DNA of 47,829 nucleotides from an uncultured Bacilli bacterium (GTDB lineage Bacteria > Bacillota_I > Bacilli_A > RF39 > UBA660), in assembly GCA_947632205.1 (NCBI GenBank), contig CANROK010000003.1, positions 1-47,829 of the forward strand, written 5' to 3'. Positions 2,481-46,333 of this stretch are shown here, in pieces. Every line of letters starts with the position of its first letter. Positions within the stretch are counted from its first letter, which is position 1. The notes beneath the pieces are model-generated. The model had not been told where the DNA came from and searched no databases. It saw only the letters and a program-made list of their open reading frames with translations. The translations under genes were made by a program, and so were the position numbers.

Positions 2481-5400
2481 TATTCCACCTCTATATCTTC
2501 ATTTTCTAAGTCTTCTGGAAATTCTAAATCATCTAAATCTTCTTCAAATTCATCTTCTTCATCATCATTATATTCACTAGATGCATCAGTTTCAGAATTT
2601 TCTACTTCTTTAAATGGTTCTTCATTATTATCAGTACCTGGAAGTTCAATTTCTTCAATTCTAAATGTATCATCACTATCATCATCTTCTTCAATATCTT
2701 TGAAATCAACCACTTTATCTTCATTATCAATAACTTGAACATCAAGACCTAATGCTTGGAATTCTTTAACTAATACTCTAAAGGATTCTGGTACACCAGC
2801 TTGATTTACAAGTTTACCTTTTACTAATGCTTCATATACTTTAACACGACCAACAATATCATCAGCTTTAACTGTTAATATTTCTTGAAGAACATGAGCA
2901 GCACCATAAGCATATAATGCCCAAACTTCCATTTCTCCAAATCTTTGACCACCAAATTGAGCTTTACCTCCAAGTGGTTGTTGAGTAACTAATGAATAAG
3001 GTCCGGTTGCACGAGCATGTAATTTATCATCAACCATGTGATGTAATTTAACCATATACATTACACCAACTGATATTCTTTGATCGAATGGTTCACCAGT
3101 ACGACCATTATATAATACAGTTTTACCATCAGGATCCATTCCAGCTTCTTTCATTTCTTCTTGAATATCTTCCCAAGAAGCACTATCAAATACTGGCGTT
3201 GCATAATGAACACCTAATTTTTTACCAGCCATACCTAAGTGTAATTCTAGGATTTGACCGATATTCATACGAGATGGAACACCAAGTGGATTAAGCATTA
3301 CGTCAACTGGACGACCATCTGGTAAATATGGCATATCTTCTTCTGGAAGAACTAATGAAATAACACCTTTGTTACCATGACGTCCTGACATTTTATCACC
3401 AATTTGGATTTTCCTCTTTTGAATGATATAAACACGAATTACTTTAGAAACACCAGCAGGAAGTTCATCAGAATTTTCTTTTGTATAAACTTTAACATCA
3501 TGAACTACACCACCAGCTCCGTGTTCAACACGTAGAGATGTATCTCTAACTTCACGCGTTTTTTCACCAAATATAGCATGTAATAATTTTTCTTCACTAG
3601 TAAGTTCTTGCATTCCTTTAGGTGTAACTTTACCTACAAGGATATCGCCTTCTTTTACTTCGGTACCGATTTTAACAATACCATCAGCATCTAAGTTCTT
3701 ACGAGCATCTTCCCCAACATTAGGAATATCTCTTGTAATTTCCTCAGGTCCAAGTTTAGTATCACGACAATCGATATCATAGTGATCTATATGTAATGAT
3801 GTATAAACATCATCTTTAACTAATCTTTCATTTAAGATAACTGCATCTTCATAGTTATAACCATTATAGGTCATGAAAGCAACAGTCATATTTTTACCTA
3901 AAGCAAGTTCGCCACCATCAGTTGAAGGTCCATCGGCAATAACTTGACCAGCATGAACTTTATCACCCTTCTTAACAAGTGGATGATGGTTTATAGCACT
4001 TGATGCATTACTACGTTCAAAATTTGCTAAATGATATGTATCTGTTCCTTGTTTAACTTTTACAACAATCTTTAAGCTATCAGCATATTCAACAACACCA
4101 TCTGCTTTACATACAATGGTAGATCCAGAATCTCTAGCTGCAATCCATTCAACACCTGTACCAACAATTGGTGCTTCACTAGTTAAAAGTGGAACTGCTT
4201 GACGTTGCATGTTAGAACCCATTAATGTACGGTTAGCATCATCGAATTCCAAGAATGGAATACAACTTGTTGTAATAGATACAACTTGACTTGGTGCAAC
4301 GTCTACATAATCGACAACATCTCTTTTAACCATTACGTTATCACCATTATGACGAACTAGTAATTCATCATCAATTATTTTATTATTATCATCTAATTTA
4401 ACTGTAGCTTGGCTTATATACAAATCTTGTTCTTCATCAGCAGTCATATAAACTATTTCATCTTGAACAACACCATCAATAACTTTACGATAAGGTGTCA
4501 TTATAAAGCCATATTCATTTATTTTAGCATAACCTGCTAAACTAGTAATAAGTCCAATGTTTTGTCCTTCTGGTGATTCAATTGGACAAATTCTTCCATA
4601 GTGAGATGAGTTAACATCACGTACATCCATACCAGCACGTTCTCTTGATAAACCACCTGGTCCTAAACTTGATAAACGTCTCTTATCAGTAAGTTCCGCA
4701 ATTGGATTTATTTGATCCATGAACTTAGATAATTGAGATGAACCAAAGAATTCTTTTAAAGCTGCTGTAACTGGTCTTATATTAATAAGTGTTTTAGGAG
4801 TAATATTTTCTACTTCTTGAGTAGTCATTCTTTCACGAATAACTCTTTCCATACGACTTACACCAGTTTTAAATTGATTTTGAATAAGTTCACCAACTTG
4901 ACGAACACGTCTATTTCCTAAGTTATCTATTTCATCTGTATTACCAATATTATCATGTAAATTTAAATAATATGATACGGCAGCATAAATATCAGGAATA
5001 GTAAGTCTTTTTTCTTCAATACTTTGATCATTACCTATTAATTTAATGGTCTTTTTATTATTTATCTTATCATATACTAATAAAGTTTGAATTTTATTAT
5101 ATTCATCTAATTCCATATTAGTAATAGTTTCTTTTAAATTGAAACCTTTACTCATAGCATCTTTTAAGATACTAATATTTTTCTTATCAATAACTGTACC
5201 CTTAGATAATACAACTTCTTTATCTATTTTTACATCTTCTGCTAAAGTACAACCTAGTACTCTTTCACATACATTTAACTTTTTGTTGAATTTATATCTT
5301 CCAACTTTAGCTAAATCATAACGGAATCTATCAAAGAATCTAGTTATTAATTGGTTTTTAGCACTATCAAGTGTTGCTGGTTCACCTGGTCTTAATTTTT

Positions 5401-33278: not shown

Positions 33279-35078
33279 TTATCTGTTTTTTAATAGTTTT
33301 TTATAAAGAAATGATACTATAGAGGCAAATAGTAAAACACCTAATCCAATAATGATATATTTATTATAATCTTGCCATAAATATATTAATTTATTAGATA
33401 AAATATTATTTGGTTTATCATCATCTATTTGATAAAATAAAGTGCTTTTTATGTTTTTTGGGCTATTATTATGCTCAAGTAAATCGCTTTGTTTATCTGT
33501 TTCATTAGTAGCAACTTTAATTGTTAATTGAAATTTATTATCTTTTAAATTAGTTGTGTCAACAAAATTAATGCCATCAATAGAAATATATTGAACATTT
33601 TCTTTCATTTTCATTGTACTATAAGTACCATCTATAGGATAAGATACTCCAAGTTCTATATTATCATTATCTATTATTTTAATTAAAATAGAATATTTAT
33701 CACTATTTATAATTGGTTTATCAAAAATATCTAAAGTATTATAACCAACAAAATTAATTTCACCTTCACCAATTTTAATAGCATTATTAATATTAGATTC
33801 AATACCATTAGCAAAAAACACTTCATATCTTTGATTAATTTTTGGAAAATACATAGCTATTTCTTCTAATTGCTCATTTTTTAAACTTTTTTTATCAAAA
33901 AAATTAATTAAACTGATTTCTTTACTATCTATCTCATATGTTGCATTATAACCTAAATCATCATAGTAATAAGTATAATCTTCGACATCTTTAGAAGCAT
34001 CAAAAAAGCCCACTACACTTTTACAAATATAAATATCATCATAAGAAATATATTCAAAACCTTTATCACCAATATTTAAATATACATTTTCATCATAAAA
34101 AAATATTTCATCTTCACTTATTTCATAAATGCTTGCTAATAATAATTTTAATCTTGCATCATTAATTTCATCAATACTATTAATATTTAAATTAGTTCGA
34201 TAATTAGCATATAATTGTCTTTTTACTAAATCTTTCGTACCAATATTCATAATTTCCCCATAAGAATTTTTAATTATGAATGCCCCATCTCTTGTAGGAG
34301 GATTAATTGATGAAAATTTTTCTTTAGAAATAGTATCATCCCAACCAATAATAGTAACACCATGATTAACATCTTGATTTCCAGGAATTATATCGCCATT
34401 TATATCTTTTCTTGCAAGGCCATTATAATAATTATATTTTCTAAAAACATTAGTATTATCTGCATATACAGATGCTGCCAAAGCTCCATTAGTTATTAAA
34501 TATTCTTTTATATCTTTTATAACATCAGTATTACATGTAGAACCACTACCAATAAAAGCAATAGAGTTTACATCAAATTCAGGATTAACATTTAATATTT
34601 TATCTTCTGATATTGGCTTATTTTCATTATATAAATTAATTAAATCAACAAAAGGTAAAGACACTTCTTCTATAGCACCCCATCCATTCATTAAGTAAGA
34701 TGCCGCTAAATTATAATTTCCCCCAGTATTTGCCTCTCTATTAAATGTTAATCGATTATATTTATAAGTATTTTGAGTAGCTAATTCTAAGTGTGCTTCG
34801 GATAAATCATTATAATAATAATTATTAATTAATAAATTAGATTCAATTGAGGCATTAGTAGCAAAAGCCCAACAAGCATTTGTATTATATTGGTTTTTTA
34901 TAGAAGTAACTAAATCATAATCTTTTAAATTAAAGTAAGTATCATTAACACTAATTGTACCTAATTTTGGATTACTTTTTATAAATTTAAACTTATCTAA
35001 AGCATTAACCCGTAAAATAGGAGTATTAAACATTAAAAAACTAATTAAAATTGTAAATATGAATTGTTTTTTAATCAT
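33279..35078 (-). CDS. C1A papain-family cysteine protease with lectin-like domain and C-terminal membrane anchor
   Basis: KNQYNTNACWAF (Gln/Cys), NHGVTIIGWDD (His) and IIKNSYG (Asn). Signal peptide and C-terminal TM helix with basic tail. Confidence 0.9.
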   Translation of the reverse strand: MIKKQFIFTILISFLMFNTPILRVNALDKFKFIKSNPKLGTISVNDTYFNLKDYDLVTSIKNQYNTNACWAFATNASIESNLLINNYYYNDLSEAHLELATQNTYKYNRLTFNREANTGGNYNLAASYLMNGWGAIEEVSLPFVDLINLYNENKPISEDKILNVNPEFDVNSIAFIGSGSTCNTDVIKDIKEYLITNGALAASVYADNTNVFRKYNYYNGLARKDINGDIIPGNQDVNHGVTIIGWDDTISKEKFSSINPPTRDGAFIIKNSYGEIMNIGTKDLVKRQLYANYRTNLNINSIDEINDARLKLLLASIYEISEDEIFFYDENVYLNIGDKGFEYISYDDIYICKSVVGFFDASKDVEDYTYYYDDLGYNATYEIDSKEISLINFFDKKSLKNEQLEEIAMYFPKINQRYEVFFANGIESNINNAIKIGEGEINFVGYNTLDIFDKPIINSDKYSILIKIIDNDNIELGVSYPIDGTYSTMKMKENVQYISIDGINFVDTTNLKDNKFQLTIKVATNETDKQSDLLEHNNSPKNIKSTLFYQIDDDKPNNILSNKLIYLWQDYNKYIIIGLGVLLFASIVSFLYKKLLKNR

Positions 35079-35164
35079 AATCTCCTACTTTCTATTCTTT
35101 TTATATTATATCACTTATTTAACTTTTTTTTAATATCGTAAATAAATATACAATATTAATCGTC

Positions 35165-35200
35165 AAAAAAATGTCGAAAACTTGTGAGTTTTCAACATTT
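35165..35200 (-). terminator. Original terminator of the nrdD-nrdG operon, now displaced by the IS
   Basis: Minus strand AAATGTTGAAAAC-TCACAA-GTTTTCGACATTT followed by TTTT. Its first 8 nt are the duplicated target. Confidence 0.75.
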
Positions 35201-35377
35201 GGTTCTAGAATTTCTAGAGTGAAGTAAAATTTAAAAGAATATAGGTATATACTAATAAAAAACAGGTATTTTTAATAATAAATTTTTATACCTGTTTTTT
35301 TCTTGTTTTTTTAACTTTTTTATCTTTTTGAAAAATAGCTTTTTTAGAAAAAACTAAAACCATCTAATTTACTATTT

Positions 35378-35572
35378 TTAAGAATTTTTGTTATCTAAAA
35401 TTAAATAAATTATATCTGTTATTTCTTCATCTATTTTGGCAAGTGTTGTAAGTTCTTCTAATTCTTTTCTATATTCTATTATATTTTCTAAATCTATATC
35501 TTTTTTTATCATATTAAATAACATTCTTACTTTTCTTTTATTATTTCTTAATTTGTTTATTATTTCTTCCAT
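35378..35572 (-). CDS. Small helical hypothetical protein carried inside the IS
   Basis: 64 aa with a strong RBS AGGAGGAGG inside the transposase 3' end; overlaps the transposase by 32 nt. Confidence 0.65.
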   Translation of the reverse strand: MEEIINKLRNNKRKVRMLFNMIKKDIDLENIIEYRKELEELTTLAKIDEEITDIIYLILDNKNS

Positions 35573-36845
35573 TTTTAATTCCTCCTCCTAATTGTTTGTT
35601 AAATATATATAATATTCGCTTCCTAAAAAATTTAAAATTTCTATATCCATATCCATTTCTTTTTATTACTTTGATTTTGTTATTTATTCCTTCTGTAAAT
35701 CCATTACTATATCTTTTATCTATAAATGAATTTACTATATATTCTAGCCATCTTTCTATCGTTCCTGATGCTTCTATGAATTCTTCAATTTTACTTTTTT
35801 TACATATATCTATCCAATTTTTTAATTGTACTTCAGCTTCTTCATATACTGCATGATTGATTATATCTAAAAATAACTCTTTTAAATTATATCCTCTTTT
35901 TAATTCATCTGATATTTCTAATATCTCTTTTATAATATCTACTGGTAACATTTTTACTATATGACTATTTTTATATCTTTCTACTTCTACCCACCAATTA
36001 ACATCGTTTCCATATTTTCTCAGCAAACTTACATTCTTTTTATTTTTCAAAAGCTTATATTCTTTACTTTTTTCATTATATGTTTTTTGTAATCTTATTC
36101 TTATTTTATCTAGTGCTTCCATTATATATCTGATATAATGGAAGCGGTCAACAACATATTTTGCTTTTGGGAACATTATTGTTGTGACCAATAGATATGG
36201 TTCGTACATATCACTTATGACGAACTTTACGGAATGTCTATTTTCGGTATATGTAAAATACTGAATTAGATATTCTTTTTTTCTTTTTGGCAATATATCT
36301 AATACTTTTTTATGTATTGGATCATTTATTATAAATGCATATTTTCCTTCTTCTGTATCTGCTTTAAATTCATCAAATGATATTACCATTGGTAAATTCT
36401 TTAAATGTTCTGGTATTGTACTTGTTGCTCCTTCTAATTCTTTCCTTACTATATATTTTGATACATGATTATTTTTTGCTATTGAATCAATGGTTAAATT
36501 ATAATCTAGTAAATTTTTCCTTATTGCTATCTTTACCGCATTACTTATACTTTCATTTTTACTTGTTAAATTAAAATTTTCTGTAAATATCTTATTACAC
36601 TTATAACAATGAAACCTTCTTTTATGTATTATCAAATTAACTTCCTGACCACAACTATCTAAATATTTACTTCTTATCGGTCTAGCATGACAATGTACAC
36701 TACCTGTAAAAGTGTTACATATTGGGCATCTTACTTTTTTCTTTTTACTACACAGTTTAACTTCAATTATTCCTTTCTCTTCTTTTACATTTATTATTTT
36801 ATATTCCTTTCTATTTAATCTTAATAAGGTATAATATTCTTTCAT
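35541..36845 (-). CDS. ISL3-family transposase
   Basis: Zinc finger CPIC...CYKC, FDEF, SDM, VVDRFH and SNGFTEGINNKIKVIKRNGYGYRNF. Confidence 0.96.
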   Translation of the reverse strand: MKEYYTLLRLNRKEYKIINVKEEKGIIEVKLCSKKKKVRCPICNTFTGSVHCHARPIRSKYLDSCGQEVNLIIHKRRFHCYKCNKIFTENFNLTSKNESISNAVKIAIRKNLLDYNLTIDSIAKNNHVSKYIVRKELEGATSTIPEHLKNLPMVISFDEFKADTEEGKYAFIINDPIHKKVLDILPKRKKEYLIQYFTYTENRHSVKFVISDMYEPYLLVTTIMFPKAKYVVDRFHYIRYIMEALDKIRIRLQKTYNEKSKEYKLLKNKKNVSLLRKYGNDVNWWVEVERYKNSHIVKMLPVDIIKEILEISDELKRGYNLKELFLDIINHAVYEEAEVQLKNWIDICKKSKIEEFIEASGTIERWLEYIVNSFIDKRYSNGFTEGINNKIKVIKRNGYGYRNFKFFRKRILYIFNKQLGGGIKNGRNNKQIKK

Positions 36846-36952
36846 TTTTCACCTTCTTTCGTTATTTATCTCTTAATAAGATTAATCTTTATTGTAATAC
36901 TTTTTCTTATTTTTACCACTTAAAAAGAGTGAGATTTTTTCTCACTCTTTTC

Positions 36953-37061
36953 TTCACGCTAGAAATTCTAGTTTTTTTTCAAAAGTTCACTCCAGAAATT
37001 CTTGCTTTTCTTTTTTTAGCTAGCATTTCTCTTACTTTTTACTTCACTCTAGAAATTCTAG
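36953..37061 (+). repeat. Three subterminal copies of the IS end motif
   Basis: TTCACGCTAGAAATTCTAG (36953), TTCACTCCAGAAATTCTTG (36986) and TTCACTCTAGAAATTCTAG (37043, within the IR). Confidence 0.85.
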
Positions 37062-37071
37062 AACCCAACAT

Positions 37072-37635
37072 TTATATATACATTTTTTCTTTTCGTTTAT
37101 ATTTTTCCATGATGCCATCACTTTCCGGTATTAAAATAATTTCACCTTTTTGTAAAGTTTTAGGCACATCAATTAATCTTTGATTTGATGATCCTCTAAA
37201 AAGTAAATTTAAATCTTTTTTTTCTATTTCAAAACGACCATCAACTAAAACATCAAGATATTTAAGTAATTCTAAATAATTTTTATTTTTCTTACCTAAA
37301 TCTAACACTTGTTCATATGTAAAACCCGTATAACACCAAACATTTAAACCAATTTTTTTTGCAAATTTAGCAATTTCTAAAACACTATCAACTTGAAACA
37401 TTGGATCTCCGCCACTTAGCGTTATACCATCTTGTTTTTTCTTTTTTTTAATATCTTCCAGTTCTTCACAAATCTCTTGAACATCATATTCTTCTCCACC
37501 ATCAAAGGCATGAGTACTAGGATTTTGGCAAAAAGGACAATTATGAGAACATCCTTGTGTCCAAATAACTGTCCTTACCCCAAAACCATCAACAACACTA
37601 TCACATTGAAGTGGTGCTGCTAGTCTTATTTTCAT
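37072..37635 (-). CDS. nrdG: Anaerobic ribonucleotide reductase activating protein
   Basis: DSVVDGFGVRTVIWTQGCSHNCPFC (radical SAM CxxxCxxC), SGGDP, VDGRF and FRGSSNQR. Confidence 0.96.
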   Translation of the reverse strand: MKIRLAAPLQCDSVVDGFGVRTVIWTQGCSHNCPFCQNPSTHAFDGGEEYDVQEICEELEDIKKKKKQDGITLSGGDPMFQVDSVLEIAKFAKKIGLNVWCYTGFTYEQVLDLGKKNKNYLELLKYLDVLVDGRFEIEKKDLNLLFRGSSNQRLIDVPKTLQKGEIILIPESDGIMEKYKRKEKMYI

Positions 37636-37646
37636 AATTTAATTCC

Positions 37647-37823
37647 TTAAGCAGCTTTTTCATTAGCAGAAACGCCAGTATGTTTTACACGATCATGTTC
37701 TTCAGCTTTTTTCGCATTATTGAATCTATCAAGTGTACCTACAAGATAACCTGTAATACGACGGATATTTTCAAATCCTACTCCTTCTCCAATAGTTTTA
37801 CATTTTTTAGTATTTGCTTCCAT
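37647..37823 (-). CDS. Stand-alone glycyl-radical peptide of class III RNR (58 aa)
   Basis: MEANTKKCKTIGEGVGFENIRRITGYLVGTLDRFNNAKKAEEHDRVKH... contains the NrdD C-terminal RxxGYL and DRVKH motifs. Own RBS AGGAGG before the ATG at 37823. Confidence 0.88.
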   Translation of the reverse strand: MEANTKKCKTIGEGVGFENIRRITGYLVGTLDRFNNAKKAEEHDRVKHTGVSANEKAA

Positions 37824-37851
37824 AAAATATTCCTCCTCTTTCTTTTCTATT

Positions 37852-40131
37852 TTAGCAATCACATTCTAAGCTATTTATTGTTTCAACCGGAACCCCTTCA
37901 AAATTTCTTCTACCACATCTTGGACATACATCATTAATGACACCAACATATCCACATACTGGATCTCTATCTACTGGGTGATTAACGGCTCCATAACCAA
38001 TATCATTATCATGCATGATACGAATTATTTTTTCAAATGCTTCTACATTATTAGCAGTATCACCATCTATTTCAATATAAGAAATATGACCAGCATTAGT
38101 AAGTTTATGATATTTTCCTTCAATTTCCATTTTATGTTGAATAGTTGTTTTATAATAAACTGGTACATGGAAGGAATTTGTATAATATTCTCTATCAGTT
38201 ACACCTTTAATTTTGCCATATATTGATCTATCAATACCAACAAATCTACCACTTAAGCCCTCAGCTGGTGTAGCAAGACAAGTAAAATTAAGTTTCATTT
38301 CTTCAGAATATTGATCACATTTTTCACGCATATGTGATACAATTTCTAATCCTAACTTTTGGGCTTTATCTGATTCACCATGATGTTCACCAATTAAAGC
38401 TTTTAAGCATTCAGCAAGACCAATAAAACCAATTGATAAAGTACCATGTTTTAATACTTTTCTAATTTTTTGACCTGGCTCTAATTTTTCTGAATCAAGC
38501 CATACATGAGAACCTAGTAAGAATTTAAAGTTTGCTACTGATTTACTACATTGAATATCAAATCTTTGCAGTAATTGACCTTTACATAAATCAAGTAATT
38601 CATCAAGTTCTTTGTAGAAGCCCTTCATATCCGGTTTTTCTCTCGTTCCATCTACTATACCATGTTTAATTCCTAATCTTGGTAAATTAATTGTTGTAAA
38701 TGATAAATTACCTCTTCCTGGTGTAATTTGTTTCTCTGGATCAACAACATTACCAATTACTCTTGTTCTACATCCCATATAAGCTACTTCTGTTTTAGGA
38801 TCCATACCCTTTAAATATGGCTTATTAAATGATGAATCCATAAATGAGAAGTTAGGAAACATTCTTTTGGCTGATACTTTACATGCAAGTTTAAATAAAT
38901 CATAGTTTGGATCACCAACATTATAACTAACACCTTCTCTTAACTTAAAGATGGAAATTGGGAAAATAGGTGTTTCGCCATGACCAAGACCAGCATCAGT
39001 TGCAAGTAAGAAGTTTTTGATAACCATTCTACCTTCTGGAGATGTATCAGTACCAAAGTTTACTGATGAAAAAGGTACTTGAGCTCCGGCTCTACTATGC
39101 ATAGTATTTAAGTTATGAATAAATGCTTCCATAGCTTGATAAGTAATTCTATCAGTTTTAGCCATGGCTTTATCATAACCTTTTTGAATTATTTCTTCTA
39201 ATCTATCACTTGTAATAAATTCTTTAAACATTTCTTTAGGATCAAATTCAATAGTATCTATTTTGTTAATAACTTCAACTATTTTATCAAAATCAACTTC
39301 GCCTAAAAAACCATCTAAATCAAGAAAATCATAGAAAGTTTGTTTTAATTGTTTTCTAAATGTTTTTTTAACGCCTGGAGCCATATAGTAATCAAACATT
39401 GGAATACTTTGACCACCATGTTGATCATTTTGATTGGCTTGAATACAAATAGCTGCTAAAGCTGTATAACTCATAATATCATTTGGCGTTCTTAAATGAC
39501 CATGTCCTGTTGAAAAACCATTTTTAAATAATTTTTCTAAATCAATTTGATTGCAAGTTGTAGTACCCATAGCCAGAAAATCTAAATCGTGAATATGAAT
39601 ATCACCTTCATCATGGGCTCTAGCGTACTTAGCATCCATTAAATAAGCTTTACCAAATTCTTTAGAAACAGTTGCTCCAAAATGAAGCATTGTTCCCATT
39701 GGACCATCACCATCAATGTTAGCGTTTTCTCTTTTAGCATTTTCTTCTTTAGAACTTTTTAGTCCTAATGATTCAATGGCTTTAACAAATTTGTGTTGGG
39801 GTTTACTAAGACCAACAAATGCCTCACGCGATGCTGCTCTTCTTTCCCGATATTCTGAAAAAGATTTATAAACACTTTCGTCTGTTTTTTGAAGCTCTTT
39901 TTCAATAATATCTTGAATTTCCTCAATCCCAATTGTCTTTCTATCTTGATATTCTTTCTCTATTATTTTTATAACTTTTTCTAATATTTTGTTAACAATT
40001 TTTTCATCATAATCTTCGTAAACACTATCAAAGCCCTTTTTAATAGCAATCGCTATTTTTGTGCGGTTAAAAGGGACTCTTTGGCCACTTCTTTTAACTA
40101 CAATTAAATCACTAATTACATCTTCTTTCAT
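37852..40131 (-). CDS. nrdD: Anaerobic ribonucleoside-triphosphate reductase core, lacking the glycyl-radical loop
   Basis: ATP cone VVKRSG, IHIHDLD, YMGCRT, GRGNLSFTTINLPR, TPAEGL, YYTNSFH and GHISY. Ends after DPVC...CPRC with no RxxGY. Confidence 0.96.
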   Translation of the reverse strand: MKEDVISDLIVVKRSGQRVPFNRTKIAIAIKKGFDSVYEDYDEKIVNKILEKVIKIIEKEYQDRKTIGIEEIQDIIEKELQKTDESVYKSFSEYRERRAASREAFVGLSKPQHKFVKAIESLGLKSSKEENAKRENANIDGDGPMGTMLHFGATVSKEFGKAYLMDAKYARAHDEGDIHIHDLDFLAMGTTTCNQIDLEKLFKNGFSTGHGHLRTPNDIMSYTALAAICIQANQNDQHGGQSIPMFDYYMAPGVKKTFRKQLKQTFYDFLDLDGFLGEVDFDKIVEVINKIDTIEFDPKEMFKEFITSDRLEEIIQKGYDKAMAKTDRITYQAMEAFIHNLNTMHSRAGAQVPFSSVNFGTDTSPEGRMVIKNFLLATDAGLGHGETPIFPISIFKLREGVSYNVGDPNYDLFKLACKVSAKRMFPNFSFMDSSFNKPYLKGMDPKTEVAYMGCRTRVIGNVVDPEKQITPGRGNLSFTTINLPRLGIKHGIVDGTREKPDMKGFYKELDELLDLCKGQLLQRFDIQCSKSVANFKFLLGSHVWLDSEKLEPGQKIRKVLKHGTLSIGFIGLAECLKALIGEHHGESDKAQKLGLEIVSHMREKCDQYSEEMKLNFTCLATPAEGLSGRFVGIDRSIYGKIKGVTDREYYTNSFHVPVYYKTTIQHKMEIEGKYHKLTNAGHISYIEIDGDTANNVEAFEKIIRIMHDNDIGYGAVNHPVDRDPVCGYVGVINDVCPRCGRRNFEGVPVETINSLECDC

Positions 40132-40418
40132 ATTACCTCTCCATTACAATTTCATTATAGCAAATCTTTATTCTTAATCAATGTTTTTTTTCAAAAAAAA
40201 GTTAAAAATGTCAAGCAAACTATTTTCGCTTTTTTAAAATTTATTCTTCAAAAAACATTTTATGCAGTTTTCACCTATAGTTTTATTTTTTTTCTAATTT
40301 AAAAATTTTTTTGTTCGTTTTACAATTTAATTTTTGTCAAAATGAGTAAAAGATTTTTTACTATTTTTGATAATGATTTTAGTCAAAAAATGACAATAAA
40401 AAAGATTAGAGGAAAACT

Positions 40419-40889
40419 CTAATCATTTAAAATACTTTTAAGCATTTCTATAACTAAGGAAATTACTTTATTTTTATTATCTACTCTATTTACATATTCA
40501 CATGTATATACTTTATTATAGTAAGTATCTTTATCTTTATCATAAATACTAATATATACTTTATCCATCTCTGAAGTACTATTATGAGGATCTTTTCTAT
40601 TTAATTGACCAGTTACACCAATACCATAATTAGATGCTGAATACATGGCAATATTCTTACTCATTTCCTTTGCTACTTCCATACTATAAACAGTATACTT
40701 ATTTATAATATCTTCACTAACACCCATCTTTATTTTATATTCATTAGAATAAGTTACAGCACTAAACTTAAGTACTTCACTTGCCCCAGGAATATTAGTA
40801 ATGGCATTTACAATACCGCCACCAGTACATGATTCCATAGTACTAATAGTTTTATTTAATTTAGTTAATATAGAAACTATTTCTTCCAT
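40419..40889 (-). CDS. cinA: CinA C-terminal domain protein (PncC-like nicotinamide-nucleotide amidase)
   Basis: ESCTGG, IPGAS, VTYSNEYK and GIGVTG. Confidence 0.88.
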   Translation of the reverse strand: MEEIVSILTKLNKTISTMESCTGGGIVNAITNIPGASEVLKFSAVTYSNEYKIKMGVSEDIINKYTVYSMEVAKEMSKNIAMYSASNYGIGVTGQLNRKDPHNSTSEMDKVYISIYDKDKDTYYNKVYTCEYVNRVDNKNKVISLVIEMLKSILND

Positions 40890-40893
40890 TATA

Positions 40894-43800
40894 TCACTCC
40901 TTATTTATTAATTTTAATTTATTATCTAAAATACTATATAAGTATAACTCAATATTTTCTTTTTGATAATATTTTCTTACATAATCATAATAAATATTTA
41001 GTTGTTTCTCGTATTCTTTATCTTCTATATTTTTTAATTTATAATCTACTATTTTAACCATATCATTGTTTATAACAATTAAATCAATCAAACCATGATA
41101 TTTTATATTATCTTTATTGTATATAAATTCATGTTCTTTATATATTTTACTATCTTTAGTAATATTTAAAGTATTTACTAAATTAGTAATTTTATCATAG
41201 TATGGATTATCCTCTTTAATATTTAAAAAATCTAATTCTTCAAAAGCTTCATGGACTTTTGTACCATATTCCATTTTTTTACTTTCTTCTTCACTAATTA
41301 ACTCAATTACTTTTTTCGAAGCATGATCATTTTTAACTATATTATTTTCAATATTAATATTTTGATAAGTAATTAAACTATTATCAGTTATTTTTTTATC
41401 TTTTATAACTTTATTATCTAAATAATCTTTCGTAATTTTAATATCATCTATATTAATATCTTTAATATATTCTTTTAAATTATTTTGAATAGATATTAAG
41501 AAACTTAAGAAAGAATTATATTTTTCTCTAATATCATTACTTACTAATTCATTGATTTCTTTTTCTTCTTTTTTAAGCGGAGCTACTATAATTATCTTTT
41601 CTTTAGCCCTTGTAAGAGCAACATAAAATAATCTTATTCTTTCACTTATATCATTTAATATATAATCTTTCTTATATAAATCTTTTAATATAGTATAACC
41701 AATACCTTCTTTATAATAAGGAATAATCATTTTATATCTACTAGAATAAACAAATTTATCTTTAATATCTTCTTTATTAAATGTTTTATATAGACCACTA
41801 AAATAACAAACAGGAAACTCTAAACCTTTAGATTTATGAATATTCATTATTTTAACGGCATTACCATTCATCCCATTAACACTATATTTTATTTCATCTT
41901 TACTATTAATAATTGATACTAAATGATTATTAAAATCTTCTAGAGTATAGCCAAAATCACTTAAATTAGAAGCTAAATCTAATAAGTTATCTAATCTAAT
42001 TAAAGCATCTTCAACATTACCAATAAGTATTATTTTATTATAATAATCAAATTCTTTAATTATAAGTTGTAATATTTCATAAATATTTAATTTCTTAATT
42101 TCTTTTACGATATTTAAACATTTATGGTATATTTCTGTTTCATAATAATTTTTATTCTTAACAATATTAAAAATTGTATTATCATCATAACTAAAAAGAT
42201 AAGAACGAGCTACACTTACAAAGTCATATTTAAAAGTATCATCATATTCTTTTTTGGCTATTTTTAAGATTAACTCAATTAAATTATTTAATACTAAAAT
42301 ATCTATTTCACTAGTAAGAGTTCTATCCATATATAAATTAAGAGGAATACCTAAATATTCAAATACTTTTTTATAAGTTTTAAAAGATGAACCTCTATCC
42401 ATGATTATACAGTAATCACTAAATAAAGATGGTCTTAAACATTTCTTCTTTTTATCAACAACTTCATACTTATTATTTATCTTATTTAAAATATCTCTCC
42501 CAATAATAAAACTTTCTATTTCTTCGTTATTAAAATCCCTATTATTATTTTCATAATTTAATATTTCTAATTTATAATCATCCATTCCATTTTTAAGTTC
42601 ATATAGATTATTACCAAAATTCATTTGATGAGCATTTTTATAATCACAACCACCTAGATAATCATCCATAATATAAGAAAAGATTAAATTAATACCAGCA
42701 AGTACTTCTTTCCTTGATCTAAAATTTTTTAATAAATCGATTTTAATACCACCCTTATTTAAATTATAATTATCATATTTTTCTTTAAATATATTCGGAT
42801 TAGCATTACGAAAACCATAAATAGATTGTTTAATATCACCAACCATATAAACATTATTATTTTGAATTAATTTAACAAATTCTTCTTGAATATTATTAGT
42901 ATCTTGATATTCATCTATCATTATCTCTTTATAGTAATTTTTAATTTCTAATCTTATATCTTCATTATCTTTAAGTAATTTAATAGCCATTTTCGATATA
43001 TCACTAAATTCATATAGATCATTATTAAATTTATATTCATCTAACACTTCATAAAATTTCTTAATTATATCTATAATTACTACTAAATAATTTTTAATTA
43101 TAGCAAATGTTTCTTTTATTTCTTCAATATTATTAAATCTTAAATAATCTTCTAATTCTTTTACTAATTTATCAATATTCTCTTTTACATCTTTAATTTC
43201 ATCGCTACCCCTCGGTCTTCTTGGTACATTTAATAAATTATAATATTTATAAATATCATCATATGTTTTAGCACAAATTAAATCATTAAATGACTTAACT
43301 AAAACATCATAATATTCGGGATAGGAAGATGATGATATTAAGATAATATTACTTTCAATATTATTAATTATTTCATATATCATTTTTAAATAATCTTCTA
43401 TATAATTATCAATTTTCTCTTGATTCAAATATCTATCTAAATAATTATTTAAAAAATCATCTCTATCTATTTCATTATCAATATTATTTATAAAATCTAA
43501 AATGGCCTCTTTAATTGCTTTATCATTCTTAATACAAAAATCTTTAATTAAATTTAGAAATAAAGGATCTTCACTTACATAATAATCATCAAAAATATTA
43601 TTTAATATTTCTTCTTTTTTAATTCTAATTAAACTATCATCAACAATACTTAAATTATTAGAAACATTTAATTTATAATTATATTTTTTTACTAAAGATA
43701 AAGTATAAGAATCAAAGGTGGTAATATAAGATGTTTCTAAATAATCAATATTATCTTTTAAATTATCATACTTACTTATTTCTTCTCTTATACGGTCTTG

Positions 43801-43989
43801 CATTTCTTTGGCGGCAGCATTTGTAAATGTTAAAATAAGTAATTCATTTATTTTAATACCTTGTTTTAACTTAGTTATTACTCTTTCACTTAGGACAGCT
43901 GTTTTACCAGAACCAGCACCAGCAGATACAATAATATTACTACCACTTTTATTAATGGCTTCATTCTGTTCTTTAGTCCAATCCGGCAT
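40894..43989 (-). CDS. addA: ATP-dependent helicase/nuclease subunit A
   Basis: SAGAGSGKT, TFTNAAA, DEYQD, GDIKQSIYGFR, HKSKGLEF, YVALTRA and nuclease GLID...VDYK. ATG at 43989 behind AAGGTGA. Confidence 0.93.
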   Translation of the reverse strand: MPDWTKEQNEAINKSGSNIIVSAGAGSGKTAVLSERVITKLKQGIKINELLILTFTNAAAKEMQDRIREEISKYDNLKDNIDYLETSYITTFDSYTLSLVKKYNYKLNVSNNLSIVDDSLIRIKKEEILNNIFDDYYVSEDPLFLNLIKDFCIKNDKAIKEAILDFINNIDNEIDRDDFLNNYLDRYLNQEKIDNYIEDYLKMIYEIINNIESNIILISSSSYPEYYDVLVKSFNDLICAKTYDDIYKYYNLLNVPRRPRGSDEIKDVKENIDKLVKELEDYLRFNNIEEIKETFAIIKNYLVVIIDIIKKFYEVLDEYKFNNDLYEFSDISKMAIKLLKDNEDIRLEIKNYYKEIMIDEYQDTNNIQEEFVKLIQNNNVYMVGDIKQSIYGFRNANPNIFKEKYDNYNLNKGGIKIDLLKNFRSRKEVLAGINLIFSYIMDDYLGGCDYKNAHQMNFGNNLYELKNGMDDYKLEILNYENNNRDFNNEEIESFIIGRDILNKINNKYEVVDKKKKCLRPSLFSDYCIIMDRGSSFKTYKKVFEYLGIPLNLYMDRTLTSEIDILVLNNLIELILKIAKKEYDDTFKYDFVSVARSYLFSYDDNTIFNIVKNKNYYETEIYHKCLNIVKEIKKLNIYEILQLIIKEFDYYNKIILIGNVEDALIRLDNLLDLASNLSDFGYTLEDFNNHLVSIINSKDEIKYSVNGMNGNAVKIMNIHKSKGLEFPVCYFSGLYKTFNKEDIKDKFVYSSRYKMIIPYYKEGIGYTILKDLYKKDYILNDISERIRLFYVALTRAKEKIIIVAPLKKEEKEINELVSNDIREKYNSFLSFLISIQNNLKEYIKDINIDDIKITKDYLDNKVIKDKKITDNSLITYQNINIENNIVKNDHASKKVIELISEEESKKMEYGTKVHEAFEELDFLNIKEDNPYYDKITNLVNTLNITKDSKIYKEHEFIYNKDNIKYHGLIDLIVINNDMVKIVDYKLKNIEDKEYEKQLNIYYDYVRKYYQKENIELYLYSILDNKLKLINKE

Positions 43990-46333
43990 CTTTTTCACCT
44001 TCAATCTCTTTTAAGATAACATAATCTTTTTCTTTTTTAAAACAAATATCTTGAAACTTACAATACTTACAACCAACATCATTTTTATATCCAATTTTTT
44101 TCGGATTTATATTAAAATTAACATCTAAAATATTATTAATGGCATCTTCAATTTTGGTATCTACAATATTTATTAAATTATCCATTTCTTCATTACTTAA
44201 TACTTTACTATTCTTATAAAATTCTCCATTATTTTTACATTTTAAACCTTTAATTAGATTACTATTTTGATAATTACTATCTAAATACTCTAAGATGTTT
44301 TCATCGCTATTTGAGTATCCTTCTAATTTTAATCTTTCTTTTAATTCATCTTCATAACTCTTATCACTTTTATTAATATTTTTATCTAAAATAAATTGTA
44401 AGTAAAAACCAGCAAAAGTAGGATTTTTAAATAAAGTACTATTTTTAACTAAATATAAATAAATAGGTAATTGTAAATTAAAACCATATTCACTATATTT
44501 TAAATCTATATCTTCTTTACCACTTTTATAATCTACTAAAGATATAATAGTTTTATTTTCTAATTCTTTATATAAAATTTTATCAATAAACCCAACAAAT
44601 TTAATATCGATATCTCTCGATTTATCAACTTGAATATATTGTTCTTTCAAAATTTTATCTAAATTAATATTTATATTTTGTTCAGAAATTATCTTTAAAG
44701 TATTTTTAATATCTTCTTTCATTAATTTAACAAAGTATTCTTCTTTTTTAGATAAAACTCTACCACTAGTTTGAATATAATTTTCAATAACCTCATCACT
44801 ATCTAAATTAGAACCAACACACTTAGATAAACAATCATGCAATAAAGAACCAATAAATGATTCGAATAAATCCATTTCTTTTTGTAGTTTTAAAACATTA
44901 CTTAAATAATAACGAAAAGCACATTTATTATAATTATTTATTTGACCATAAGATAAAGATAATCTATTATTTATATATTCTTTAAATGCCTCTTTATCTA
45001 TTTTTGTATATTCATTATTAAAAGAATTATAAGAAATATCTTTAAAACTATTCATTAAAATATTATATTCATCACTAATAATACCATATGTTTCATAATC
45101 ATAGATCATTTTAGCAAGTTTTAATTTATCATAATCGAAAGAATAATGAACTAATGATTCATTTTGATAATGTTCTTTAACTAAGTTTAATTCACTAACT
45201 AAAATAGATGGATAATAGATAGTTTTATTATCTTTTAACTTATAACTTATAACTAAATTTTTAATACTTTTTAATTTGTTAATCGTAGCATTCTTTATTT
45301 CTTTATTAATAACATGACAACTACTTAAATTTAGTTCTTCTTTAATATTATCGGTAAAATAATCTTCATCTTTTATAAATCTTGGAATACTACTAGTTGT
45401 AAAGTTCATTAAAAATATATAATCATCATCATTTACTAAAGCAAAAGTATCTATAATTTCTACATAATTTTGATATTGAAAATTATTAATTTTAGTATTT
45501 TTAAATTCTTGAATCATTATTGTTTTTAAAATATCTAAATCTTTTATATAATTAAATTTATTACAAAGATTAACTATTTTATTTACTATTTCTTCATTTT
45601 CATCTTTAATTAAATTAAGACTATACTCTATACCACGATATAAATTATTTAAAAAAGTTTTACCCATTATATTATTATATAAATTATTATTAGTAGGTAT
45701 ATTTATCGGTAGATGATATAAATTGCTTATTCTTCTTAAACTATTATAGTATTCTTTAGTTACATTCATTAACTTAATATGATTAATATCTATCTTGTTA
45801 TTTAATAACTCAATTATTTTTTCACACACAAAATTAATTTCTGAATCTATATTATTAAATTCATATACTTTACTTATATTATATTTTGGTGCATCTTTGA
45901 TAATTTTAGCATTTATTTCTTTAAATGTCTTTATTTCTAAATTATCAAGGTAAGGATAACCTAAAACAATAATTTGATAATTATTAATACTATCTTTAAA
46001 ATAAGAATTATATATTAAATAATTATTTTTAATTAAATCATCTTTTAATTCTTTTAAAAACTTTAATTTAGAACTTTGATATTCTTTATCATCGATATAA
46101 TAAAGTTTATTTAAATAATTTTCTAATATATCTATTTTTAAATGATATTTATTAAGTAAATAAGGCATACACTCTTTACTATAAGAATAATAATAGTTTT
46201 CCATAAAACTTTTTTTAGAATAAAATTTTATATCTTGAAAAAGATTATTTTCATTTAAATATTCTAATATTTTATTCTTATAGTTTTCTTCACAAATAAT
46301 AATTGTTTTATCTTGAATAAACTTCAAATTCAT
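43973..46333 (-). CDS. addB: AddB-like PD-(D/E)xK nuclease subunit
   Basis: Four Fe-S cysteines (KCAFRYY ... CKYCKFQDIC), GFIDKI, VDYKSG and LQLPIY. Overlaps addA. Confidence 0.87.
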   Translation of the reverse strand: MNLKFIQDKTIIICEENYKNKILEYLNENNLFQDIKFYSKKSFMENYYYSYSKECMPYLLNKYHLKIDILENYLNKLYYIDDKEYQSSKLKFLKELKDDLIKNNYLIYNSYFKDSINNYQIIVLGYPYLDNLEIKTFKEINAKIIKDAPKYNISKVYEFNNIDSEINFVCEKIIELLNNKIDINHIKLMNVTKEYYNSLRRISNLYHLPINIPTNNNLYNNIMGKTFLNNLYRGIEYSLNLIKDENEEIVNKIVNLCNKFNYIKDLDILKTIMIQEFKNTKINNFQYQNYVEIIDTFALVNDDDYIFLMNFTTSSIPRFIKDEDYFTDNIKEELNLSSCHVINKEIKNATINKLKSIKNLVISYKLKDNKTIYYPSILVSELNLVKEHYQNESLVHYSFDYDKLKLAKMIYDYETYGIISDEYNILMNSFKDISYNSFNNEYTKIDKEAFKEYINNRLSLSYGQINNYNKCAFRYYLSNVLKLQKEMDLFESFIGSLLHDCLSKCVGSNLDSDEVIENYIQTSGRVLSKKEEYFVKLMKEDIKNTLKIISEQNININLDKILKEQYIQVDKSRDIDIKFVGFIDKILYKELENKTIISLVDYKSGKEDIDLKYSEYGFNLQLPIYLYLVKNSTLFKNPTFAGFYLQFILDKNINKSDKSYEDELKERLKLEGYSNSDENILEYLDSNYQNSNLIKGLKCKNNGEFYKNSKVLSNEEMDNLINIVDTKIEDAINNILDVNFNINPKKIGYKNDVGCKYCKFQDICFKKEKDYVILKEIEGEKDAGLD

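Follow-up and report, generated by a model that had tools for sequence, protein, structure and literature searches.

Class III ribonucleotide reductase with the glycyl-radical loop encoded as a separate small protein in uncultured Bacilli

Introduction

Can a class III ribonucleotide reductase be built from two chains, one holding the catalytic barrel and the other the glycyl-radical loop? The question is raised by a locus in a stretch of 47,829 nucleotides (nt), further called the window, that comprises positions 1-47,829 of contig CANROK010000003.1 in assembly GCA_947632205.1 of an uncultured Bacilli bacterium (RF39; UBA660). Three closely spaced genes on the minus strand code here for a NrdD protein of 759 amino acids (aa) without a radical loop (the core), a 58-aa protein with the glycyl-radical motif (the peptide) and a 187-aa NrdG, the radical S-adenosylmethionine (SAM) activase. 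An earlier reading made from the letters of the window (the sequence-only reading) had proposed that the loop is a separately translated small protein and that it works as an exchangeable carrier of the radical.

Oxygen destroys glycyl-radical enzymes by cutting the chain at the radical glycine. Small autonomous loop proteins that dock to a large loop-deficient enzyme, the 'spare parts', are represented by GrcA (YfiD) from Escherichia coli and by phage T4 Y06I. The accessible portions of a 2021 paper (PMC8683613) and of a 2026 review (PMC13450708) describe spare parts as validated (in the review, known or validated) only for pyruvate formate-lyase (PFL), and both texts treat the existence of spare parts for other glycyl-radical enzymes as an open question. 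Our full-text literature search, with subscription journals and supplements outside its scope, returned no description of a split NrdD or of a NrdD-type spare part. The sequence-only reading had likewise known of no biochemical characterisation, and none was found in print.

Results

Family assignment of the three proteins

The core scored 619.2 bits against the Pfam family NRDD (PF13597, cut-off 26.2), with positions 1-533 of 562 covered, and 994.5 bits against NCBIfam NF005497 (cut-off 764), with positions 4-715 of 746 covered. The RxxGY motif is absent from the core; the glycyl-radical motif is encoded by the next open reading frame (ORF). The peptide covers only the ends of the same profiles, positions 522-562 of 562 in NRDD and 699-744 of 746 in NF005497. 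Taken alone, it reached 33.9 bits with the Pfam profile, above the cut-off, and 48.6 bits with NF005497, far under the cut-off for that family. A search of the peptide against PF01228, the PFL-type glycyl-radical domain, gave no match at E <= 0.1, and PF13597 was the only family found. For NrdG the scores were 156.8 bits with TIGR02491 (cut-off 126.1) and 132.9 bits with PF13353. Thus, the list of features given in the sequence-only reading (a 759-aa nrdD without RxxGY, a 28-nt spacer, AGGAGG, a 58-aa ORF in a different frame, then nrdG) is fully present in the sequence.

Core residues 10-745 align to residues 8-708 of the single-chain NrdD of Prevotella copri, 8p23_A (E 1.4e-169), and a profile built from the peptides matches residues 707-740 of that protein; jointly the two chains span residues 8-740. 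At the metal site, three of the four positions aligned to 8p23_A are cysteines (C726, C736 and C739), whereas the first is Asp723. In this lineage the aspartate occurs in fused relatives of the same family too. Two more cysteines close the core tail. Residues C726, C736, P737 and C739 are invariant in the split cores, and M452-V458 of the finger loop are invariant in 14 of them. Among 24 peptide homologues we counted 23 invariant columns, including R21, R22, T24, G25 and Y26.

The genome search found a single nrdD, namely the loop-less core. The large subunit of class I/II reductases (PF02867) was not found in this genome, which is assembled in 115 contigs and is 89% complete; within the genus, PF02867 was present in one genome out of 31 and absent from the other 30. 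With PF01228 the genome gave 0 matches, and no other glycyl-radical enzyme was found in it.

Conservation of the split and separate translation of the two parts

In genomes of the same genus the peptide was found in 21 of 24, always within an open frame of 54-83 aa. Five matches from other families of the class were situated in frames of 614-796 aa, that is, in fused proteins. At 12 loci of the genus, counting the one in the window, the last residue of the core is the same, each spacer (17-31 nt) contains a GGAGG-type site, and the small ORF begins ATGGAAGCA. The frame offset between the two ORFs, equal to 1 in the window, was 0 in three of these loci, 1 in five and 2 in four; at 13 split loci from other genera of the family the offsets 0, 1 and 2 were observed six, five and two times, respectively. 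All 25 split loci examined shared the core end point and the start codon context, and in all 25 the stand-alone peptide ORF had its own Shine-Dalgarno site and an ATG. Such a variation in both spacer length and frame offset indicates separate translation; a frameshifted gene would not vary in this way.

The junction was also crossed without gaps by public gut metagenome contigs from other studies. For example, a contig of run X1 covered 417 nt over the junction with 0 differences, and one of run X6 covered 200 nt, likewise with 0 gaps. In run X5 one strain carried a 1-nt deletion at 37843, inside the spacer, and both ORFs stayed intact. An intron or an intein at the junction was considered as well and was ruled out by the 28-nt spacer and by 0 Rfam matches (E <= 0.1, positions 35000-41500).

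These data bear on two explanations that dispense with a separate loop protein. One is that nrdD is a normal fused gene interrupted by an indel of the assembly or by a recent frameshift, or that the gene is decaying. It could draw on the fragmented state of the genome and on the fused forms held by related genera. However, 25 split loci have the same end point together with varied spacers and all three offsets, the contigs from other studies agree at the junction, both parts are under strong selection, and a segment of 17 profile positions is doubled, which a single indel cannot produce (the last two results are given below). We regard the artefact as already refuted, and to this whole group of explanations we assign next to no chance. 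Equally hard to credit is a single fused protein made by programmed frameshifting or stop-codon read-through. The frame of the small ORF is indeed open back to 37862 and overlaps the last ~11-12 nt of nrdD; still, the overlap has no slippery heptamer, the offset varies among species, a second stop is present in the spacer at two (L006 and L007) of the three genus loci that are in frame, each locus has its own ribosome-binding site and ATG, and a fused product would contain the duplicated segment twice. Two of the checks proposed in the sequence-only reading, for an indel at the junction and for conservation of the split, of the ribosome-binding site and of the order nrdD, small ORF, nrdG, came out as it expected, and with the varied offsets and spacers and the conserved ribosome-binding sites its claim of a separately translated loop protein is borne out.

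Duplicated segment at the junction

The cut between the two chains turned out not to be clean, and in this respect the split as first described, correct in every stated feature, has to be amended. Positions 699-715 of NF005497 were matched by both the core tail and the peptide head. With a junction profile built from 14 natural fused C-termini, the last 90 residues of the core were aligned over positions 1-83, and the peptide over 67-110; hence 17 profile positions are present twice. When the alignment of the core tail was extended without gaps, it ended two residues beyond the equivalent of the radical glycine. In fused relatives of the same family the metal site runs directly into the radical loop.

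The presence of this segment in both chains suggests that the 3' end was duplicated in tandem and that the inner copy decayed afterwards. In the simplest history compatible with the alignments, the 3' end of a fused nrdD would have been duplicated in tandem, the outer copy would have acquired a start codon, and the inner copy would have decayed to the tail of 18 residues. With its inner copy reduced to such a tail, the core would resemble a genetically 'pre-cleaved' NrdD.

Longer core tails were observed in other lineages. The split cores L055, L063, L067, L088, L091 and L116, all with Clostridia labels, keep a tail of 40 residues resembling the full radical domain in a decayed state, and several of these tails retain a Gly-Tyr pair. 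These cores may be intermediates of duplication and decay, or cores that retain a second loop.

In a tree of 32 barrels made by a quick method, 24 of the 25 split cores fell on one branch with weak support (Shimodaira-Hasegawa-like approximate likelihood ratio test, SH-aLRT, 83), and the split core L024 grouped with a fused barrel (93). The tree is compatible with one or several origins of the split. In one genus (g22) we observed a fused form in genome G089 (L028) and a split form in G312 (L022); the tree places the two barrels at a distance from each other, suggesting that the operon was replaced by transfer.

Selection on the core and the peptide

Ratios of nonsynonymous to synonymous substitution rates (dN/dS) were computed by the Nei-Gojobori method, with medians taken over pairs. 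For the conserved 38 codons of the peptide (25 loci, 245 pairs) the median was 0.112, and for the same block within the genus it was 0.068. In the core, 150 codons of the body had a median of 0.087, and the terminal 15 codons had one of 0.158 in the genus; all these values are approximate because dS was high (0.7-1.25, medians 0.8-1.25) and near saturation. All the parts are under purifying selection, and the cell probably needs the two-chain reductase.

Predicted docking of the peptide

A complex of core residues 110-759 with the peptide was modelled in three runs, along with three controls. The complex score was 0.80, 0.79 and 0.79 in the three runs (0.79 overall), and the best control had 0.00. 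In the calibration, 58 of 80 solved complexes and 2 of 110 mismatched pairs came up to this mark, counts that are only rough because own alignments were used. The runs shared at least 93% of contacts, and the predicted local distance difference test score (pLDDT) of the peptide was at least 75.

The predicted interface comprises core residues 453-455 of the finger loop, 743-750 and 752, and peptide residues 8-29 including Gly25. It consists of ~180 contacts, deep in the barrel and buried. In the model, residues 743-750 and 752 of the core touch residues 12-17 of the peptide, so that one copy of the duplicated segment is predicted to pair with the other. The placement of the peptide against the cysteine loop YMGCRT is the one that the sequence-only reading had proposed to look for, and it may reflect the solved structures of single-chain NrdD.

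Distribution of the split layout

The number of short homologues of the peptide (31-102 aa) was at least 7993 at E <= 0.001. The best 120 of them all start with Met and have a short Lys/Glu-rich leader followed by the conserved block; no source names were attached to these 120 or to 21 members listed from 10 clusters. Among 401 sampled genomes of the class, the split form was found only in the family of the window. In this family (49 genomes searched, 27 with a match) 19 genomes had the split form and 8 the fused one, and the 19 split genomes span 15 genera.

A scan of species-representative genomes produced 600 matched stretches, 597 of which were confirmed. The layout was read in the best 80 of the 600, a set biased to the split form because the ranking was by likeness to split peptides. 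We observed 66 split loci with the core directly upstream, 7 fused genes and 7 short ORFs without an adjacent core. The peptide was directly followed by nrdG in 53 of the 66 split loci; no nrdG was found with the query used in 10, and too little downstream sequence was available in 3. The labels of the split records include Bacilli, several families of Clostridia, Desulfovibrio, Fibrobacter, Treponemataceae and Anaerobiospirillum. The labels of metagenome-assembled genomes are those of the submitters, and some look doubtful. The layout, which the sequence-only reading thought possibly widespread, thus extends by record label beyond Bacillota.

Some other loci with NrdD-type loops came up in these searches. 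At L077, L090, L097 and L099 (match at ~3001-3160) there are short loop ORFs that lack the ~52-residue head of the proteins described in the next section; neither nrdD nor nrdG is situated within 3 kb of them. The adjacent genes are unrelated and code for GGDEF-HD, DUF362, DNA methylase, zinc protease, glycosyltransferase and TatD proteins, and the DNA methylase gene adjoins a Mu GemA-like gene, possibly of a prophage. In Eggerthella phage EL753P1 (L128, 1-3149) nrdD ends without a radical loop, and its finger-loop motif is interrupted by a large insertion of intein-like character; next come a 102-aa ORF and a radical-loop ORF annotated as 'hypothetical protein', the latter broken within the motif by a frame change that is either a sequencing error or real. 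In family f12, the small single-contig genomes G131, G141, G210, G217, G266, G287, G308 and G364 had the loop match in a frame of 170-177 aa with one TGA inside, as expected if TGA is read as Trp and the NrdD is a normal fused one.

Unlinked radical proteins of about 90 aa

In 14 genomes from other families of the class we found an unlinked ORF of ~87-97 aa with a NrdD-type radical loop. A full-length fused NrdD was also present in 13 of the 14. In nine genomes compared, 27-31 positions of the 32-residue loop block had the same residue as the resident NrdD, and the likeness extended to lineage-specific variants. The head of ~52 residues matched no Pfam or NCBIfam family; it is predicted to have a strand-helix-strand-strand order (pLDDT ~80). 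A Foldseek comparison of the model of the ~90-aa protein (pLDDT 68.8) with the PDB gave 0 matches at E <= 0.001, the best being at 0.061.

A profile search of 1.84 billion representatives returned 2619 hits at E <= 0.001. The best 150 of these were all small (median 99 aa), with the motif present in 147. On the other hand, a word-based search with the N-terminal 52 residues of the ~90-aa protein returned only 3 proteins. Judged by their sequences, the ~90-aa proteins look like candidate NrdD spare parts in the sense of GrcA, and their presence beside a complete NrdD suggests that cells make use of a NrdD loop supplied in trans.

Gene layout and neighbourhood

The positions of the elements described above are collected in Table 1, together with the putative signals of the operon. 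The AGGAGG of the spacer is separated by 8 nt from the ATG of the small ORF, and 11 nt separate the stop codon of the peptide from the start of nrdG. The promoter-like site is the top-scoring one (10 of 12 matches), being a consensus match only: the region had 14 such sites compared to 20.0 +/- 4.5 in shuffled sequences. In folding, the hairpin downstream of nrdG had a 13-bp stem and -16.9 kcal/mol (z -5.2), and 0 of 200 shuffles were equally stable. A terminator scan reported no terminator-like site in the gaps that separate nrdD from the small ORF and the latter from nrdG, and that scan did not flag the hairpin past nrdG either.

Table 1. Positions of the features of the two-chain reductase locus in the window, with examples of the unlinked family from other genomes in the last line
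Feature	Position	Strand	Remarks
nrdD core, class III ribonucleotide reductase chain without glycyl-radical loop	37852..40131	-	759 aa + stop; stop codon TAA at 37852-37854
ATP-cone domain, core residues 10-99	39835..40104	-	PF03477, 56.4 bits (cut-off 25.8)
Finger-loop motif YMGCRT, core residues 451-456	38764..38781	-	Aligns to the same motif in 8p23_A
Cys454 of core	38770-38772	-	Presumed thiyl-radical cysteine
Metal-site region, core residues 726-741	37909..37956	-	One Cys, then CPRC
Core tail, residues 742-759	37855..37908	-	Decayed copy of the segment leading into the radical loop
Intergenic spacer	37824..37851	-	28 nt; Shine-Dalgarno AGGAGG at 37832-37837
Stand-alone glycyl-radical peptide	37647..37823	-	58 aa + stop; ATG at 37821-37823; RRITGY motif
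Gly25 of peptide	37749-37751	-	
nrdG, radical-SAM activase	37072..37635	-	187 aa + stop; TIGR02491, PF13353
CxxxCxxC cluster motif, NrdG residues 29-36	37528-37551	-	
Promoter-like site	40154..40181	-	TTGATT, 16 nt, TG-TATAAT; 22 nt upstream of the nrdD start codon
Terminator-like hairpin, then T run	36922..36952	-	~120 nt past the nrdG stop
Unlinked ~90-aa family, loci L035-L047 and L104	e.g. L037:3781-4050; L036:3964-4224	+; -	

Directly downstream of the operon there is an ISL3-family transposase gene at 35541-36845 on the minus strand (PF01610, 197.5 bits). Between it and nrdG, at 36936-37061, we observed three copies of a repeat of ~19-36 nt with a short palindrome. The upstream neighbours, both on the minus strand, are genes for a CinA-domain protein (40419-40889) and for a 1036-aa helicase of UvrD/AddA type (40894-44004); neither has an obvious link to the reductase operon.

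Discussion

To the question raised at the beginning we answer that the locus very probably encodes a working two-chain class III ribonucleotide reductase with its radical loop on a separate peptide. The gene structure, its conservation, the purifying selection, the duplicated junction and the lack of another recognisable reductase carry this conclusion; from them we infer that the two chains bind, that NrdG is the activase and that the two-chain enzyme is active. In the mechanism that we propose, one operon would give rise to a loop-less catalytic barrel and to a small loop protein, the latter translated from its own strong ribosome-binding site. The peptide would insert non-covalently into the barrel and bring Gly25 beside Cys454 of the finger loop, NrdG with SAM would place the radical on Gly25, and catalysis would then proceed as in the single-chain NrdD. 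The 18-residue core tail would act as a docking strand for the matching strand of the peptide.

A further proposal, which extends the exchange suggested in the sequence-only reading, is that the peptide is activated while free and is replaced after an oxygen cut, with 58 aa lost rather than the 759-aa core. We find this plausible, with a chance only slightly short of even. Short peptides can serve as substrates for the activase of pyruvate formate-lyase, which would make activation of a free 58-aa protein chemically reasonable.

Several points weigh against the working two-chain enzyme or against exchange of its peptide. A second reductase might reside in the part of the genome beyond the 89% covered, and small host-associated bacteria can live on the salvage of deoxynucleosides. 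Besides the near saturation of dS mentioned above, the solved single-chain structures (8p23, 1h78 and 9d3x) mean that the good docking score may be a mere likeness to NrdD. As to exchange, with ~180 buried contacts it could be slow, and each genome has one copy of the peptide gene with no extras.

The two last points speak in favour of the main rival, in which the enzyme is the same two-chain one and the split brought no benefit: the inner copy was lost by drift, with the outer copy able to supply the loop, and the peptide assembles once and is never exchanged. This permanently assembled, neutral split fits the same data, and we hold it to be a serious possibility whose chance is nonetheless somewhat below even. 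The duplicated junction is what a route of duplication and decay predicts, and one family contains both fused and split forms, as does even a single genus (G089 and G312). On the other hand, within one family the split has been kept over at least 15 genera, and it is present in records that bear the labels of several phyla, the core tail is itself under purifying selection (0.158), the Shine-Dalgarno match of the peptide is the best of the three genes, and the unlinked proteins beside complete NrdD suggest delivery of the loop in trans. Very unlikely, to our judgement, is a role of the small protein other than that of the NrdD radical site, either as a regulator or decoy of NrdG or in the service of another glycyl-radical enzyme. 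A protein that is small and autonomous like GrcA, and the amount of which could be set independently of the core, would suit such a role; however, the core itself lacks a radical glycine, the genome has no other glycyl-radical enzyme by the PF01228 search, the peptide matches NrdD profiles only, and its predicted position is at the NrdD radical site.

The closest relatives of the two-chain reductase are ordinary single-chain NrdD proteins with NrdG (8p23, T4 1h78/1hk8, 9d3x). The fold, the ATP-cone, the barrel, the finger-loop cysteine, the metal-site region with three of its four cysteines, the radical-loop motif and the adjacent activase are common to both. In contrast to the single-chain proteins, the radical loop is here a polypeptide by itself, translated from a start codon of its own, and a decayed second copy of the pre-loop segment closes the core. 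The closest functional analogue is GrcA/YfiD (and Y06I of T4) acting with PFL, where the large partner also keeps a strand that overlaps the one of the small protein; in the available part of the 2026 review, removal of this overlapping strand is reported to impair rescue (PMC13450708). The likeness to GrcA claimed in the sequence-only reading holds for a small autonomous loop protein and fails for the spare part: with a core that lacks a radical loop, the peptide becomes an obligate subunit rather than a spare. It matches NrdD profiles and not PF01228, serves a reductase and not a formate lyase, and is encoded within the operon rather than as a backup for a loop-bearing enzyme. The backing up of a full-length loop-bearing enzyme, which is the trait of GrcA, would be a feature of the ~90-aa family found elsewhere and not of the 58-aa peptide. 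A reductase chain encoded by two adjacent genes whose products assemble is also described, in the accessible text of PMC9669993 with reference to Crona et al. 2015, for the class II NrdJa/NrdJb of Pseudomonas aeruginosa. That enzyme differs from the split NrdD in the class and in the cut point, and the radical-bearing residue is not separated from the barrel.

We may tentatively go one step further and consider class III reductases as owners of an autonomous glycyl-radical protein system of two grades, the split carriers and the unlinked spare parts; at present we would rather doubt this than assert it. Under this two-grade reading, NrdG could possibly charge a free carrier of 51-67 aa, which would then dock, take the oxygen damage and get replaced. 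The ~90-aa proteins would be, with the same reservation, true spare parts for full-length NrdD cleaved by oxygen. If true, such a system would answer whether repair by spare parts exists outside pyruvate formate-lyase and would explain how strict anaerobes with no other reductase survive pulses of oxygen.

For annotation, the finding matters in two ways. ORFs of 50-100 aa with the loop are unnamed in the searched collections or are called 'hypothetical protein', and a loop-less nrdD is easily taken for a pseudogene, with the organism wrongly scored as having no working reductase. The split NrdD offers a natural system for the study of free versus docked activation by NrdG, of radical delivery in trans and of repair after oxygen, and an open question of the glycyl-radical field becomes a bench experiment. 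For the bacteria themselves it would mean that an essential DNA-precursor enzyme of many gut anaerobes bears its radical on a separate small protein.

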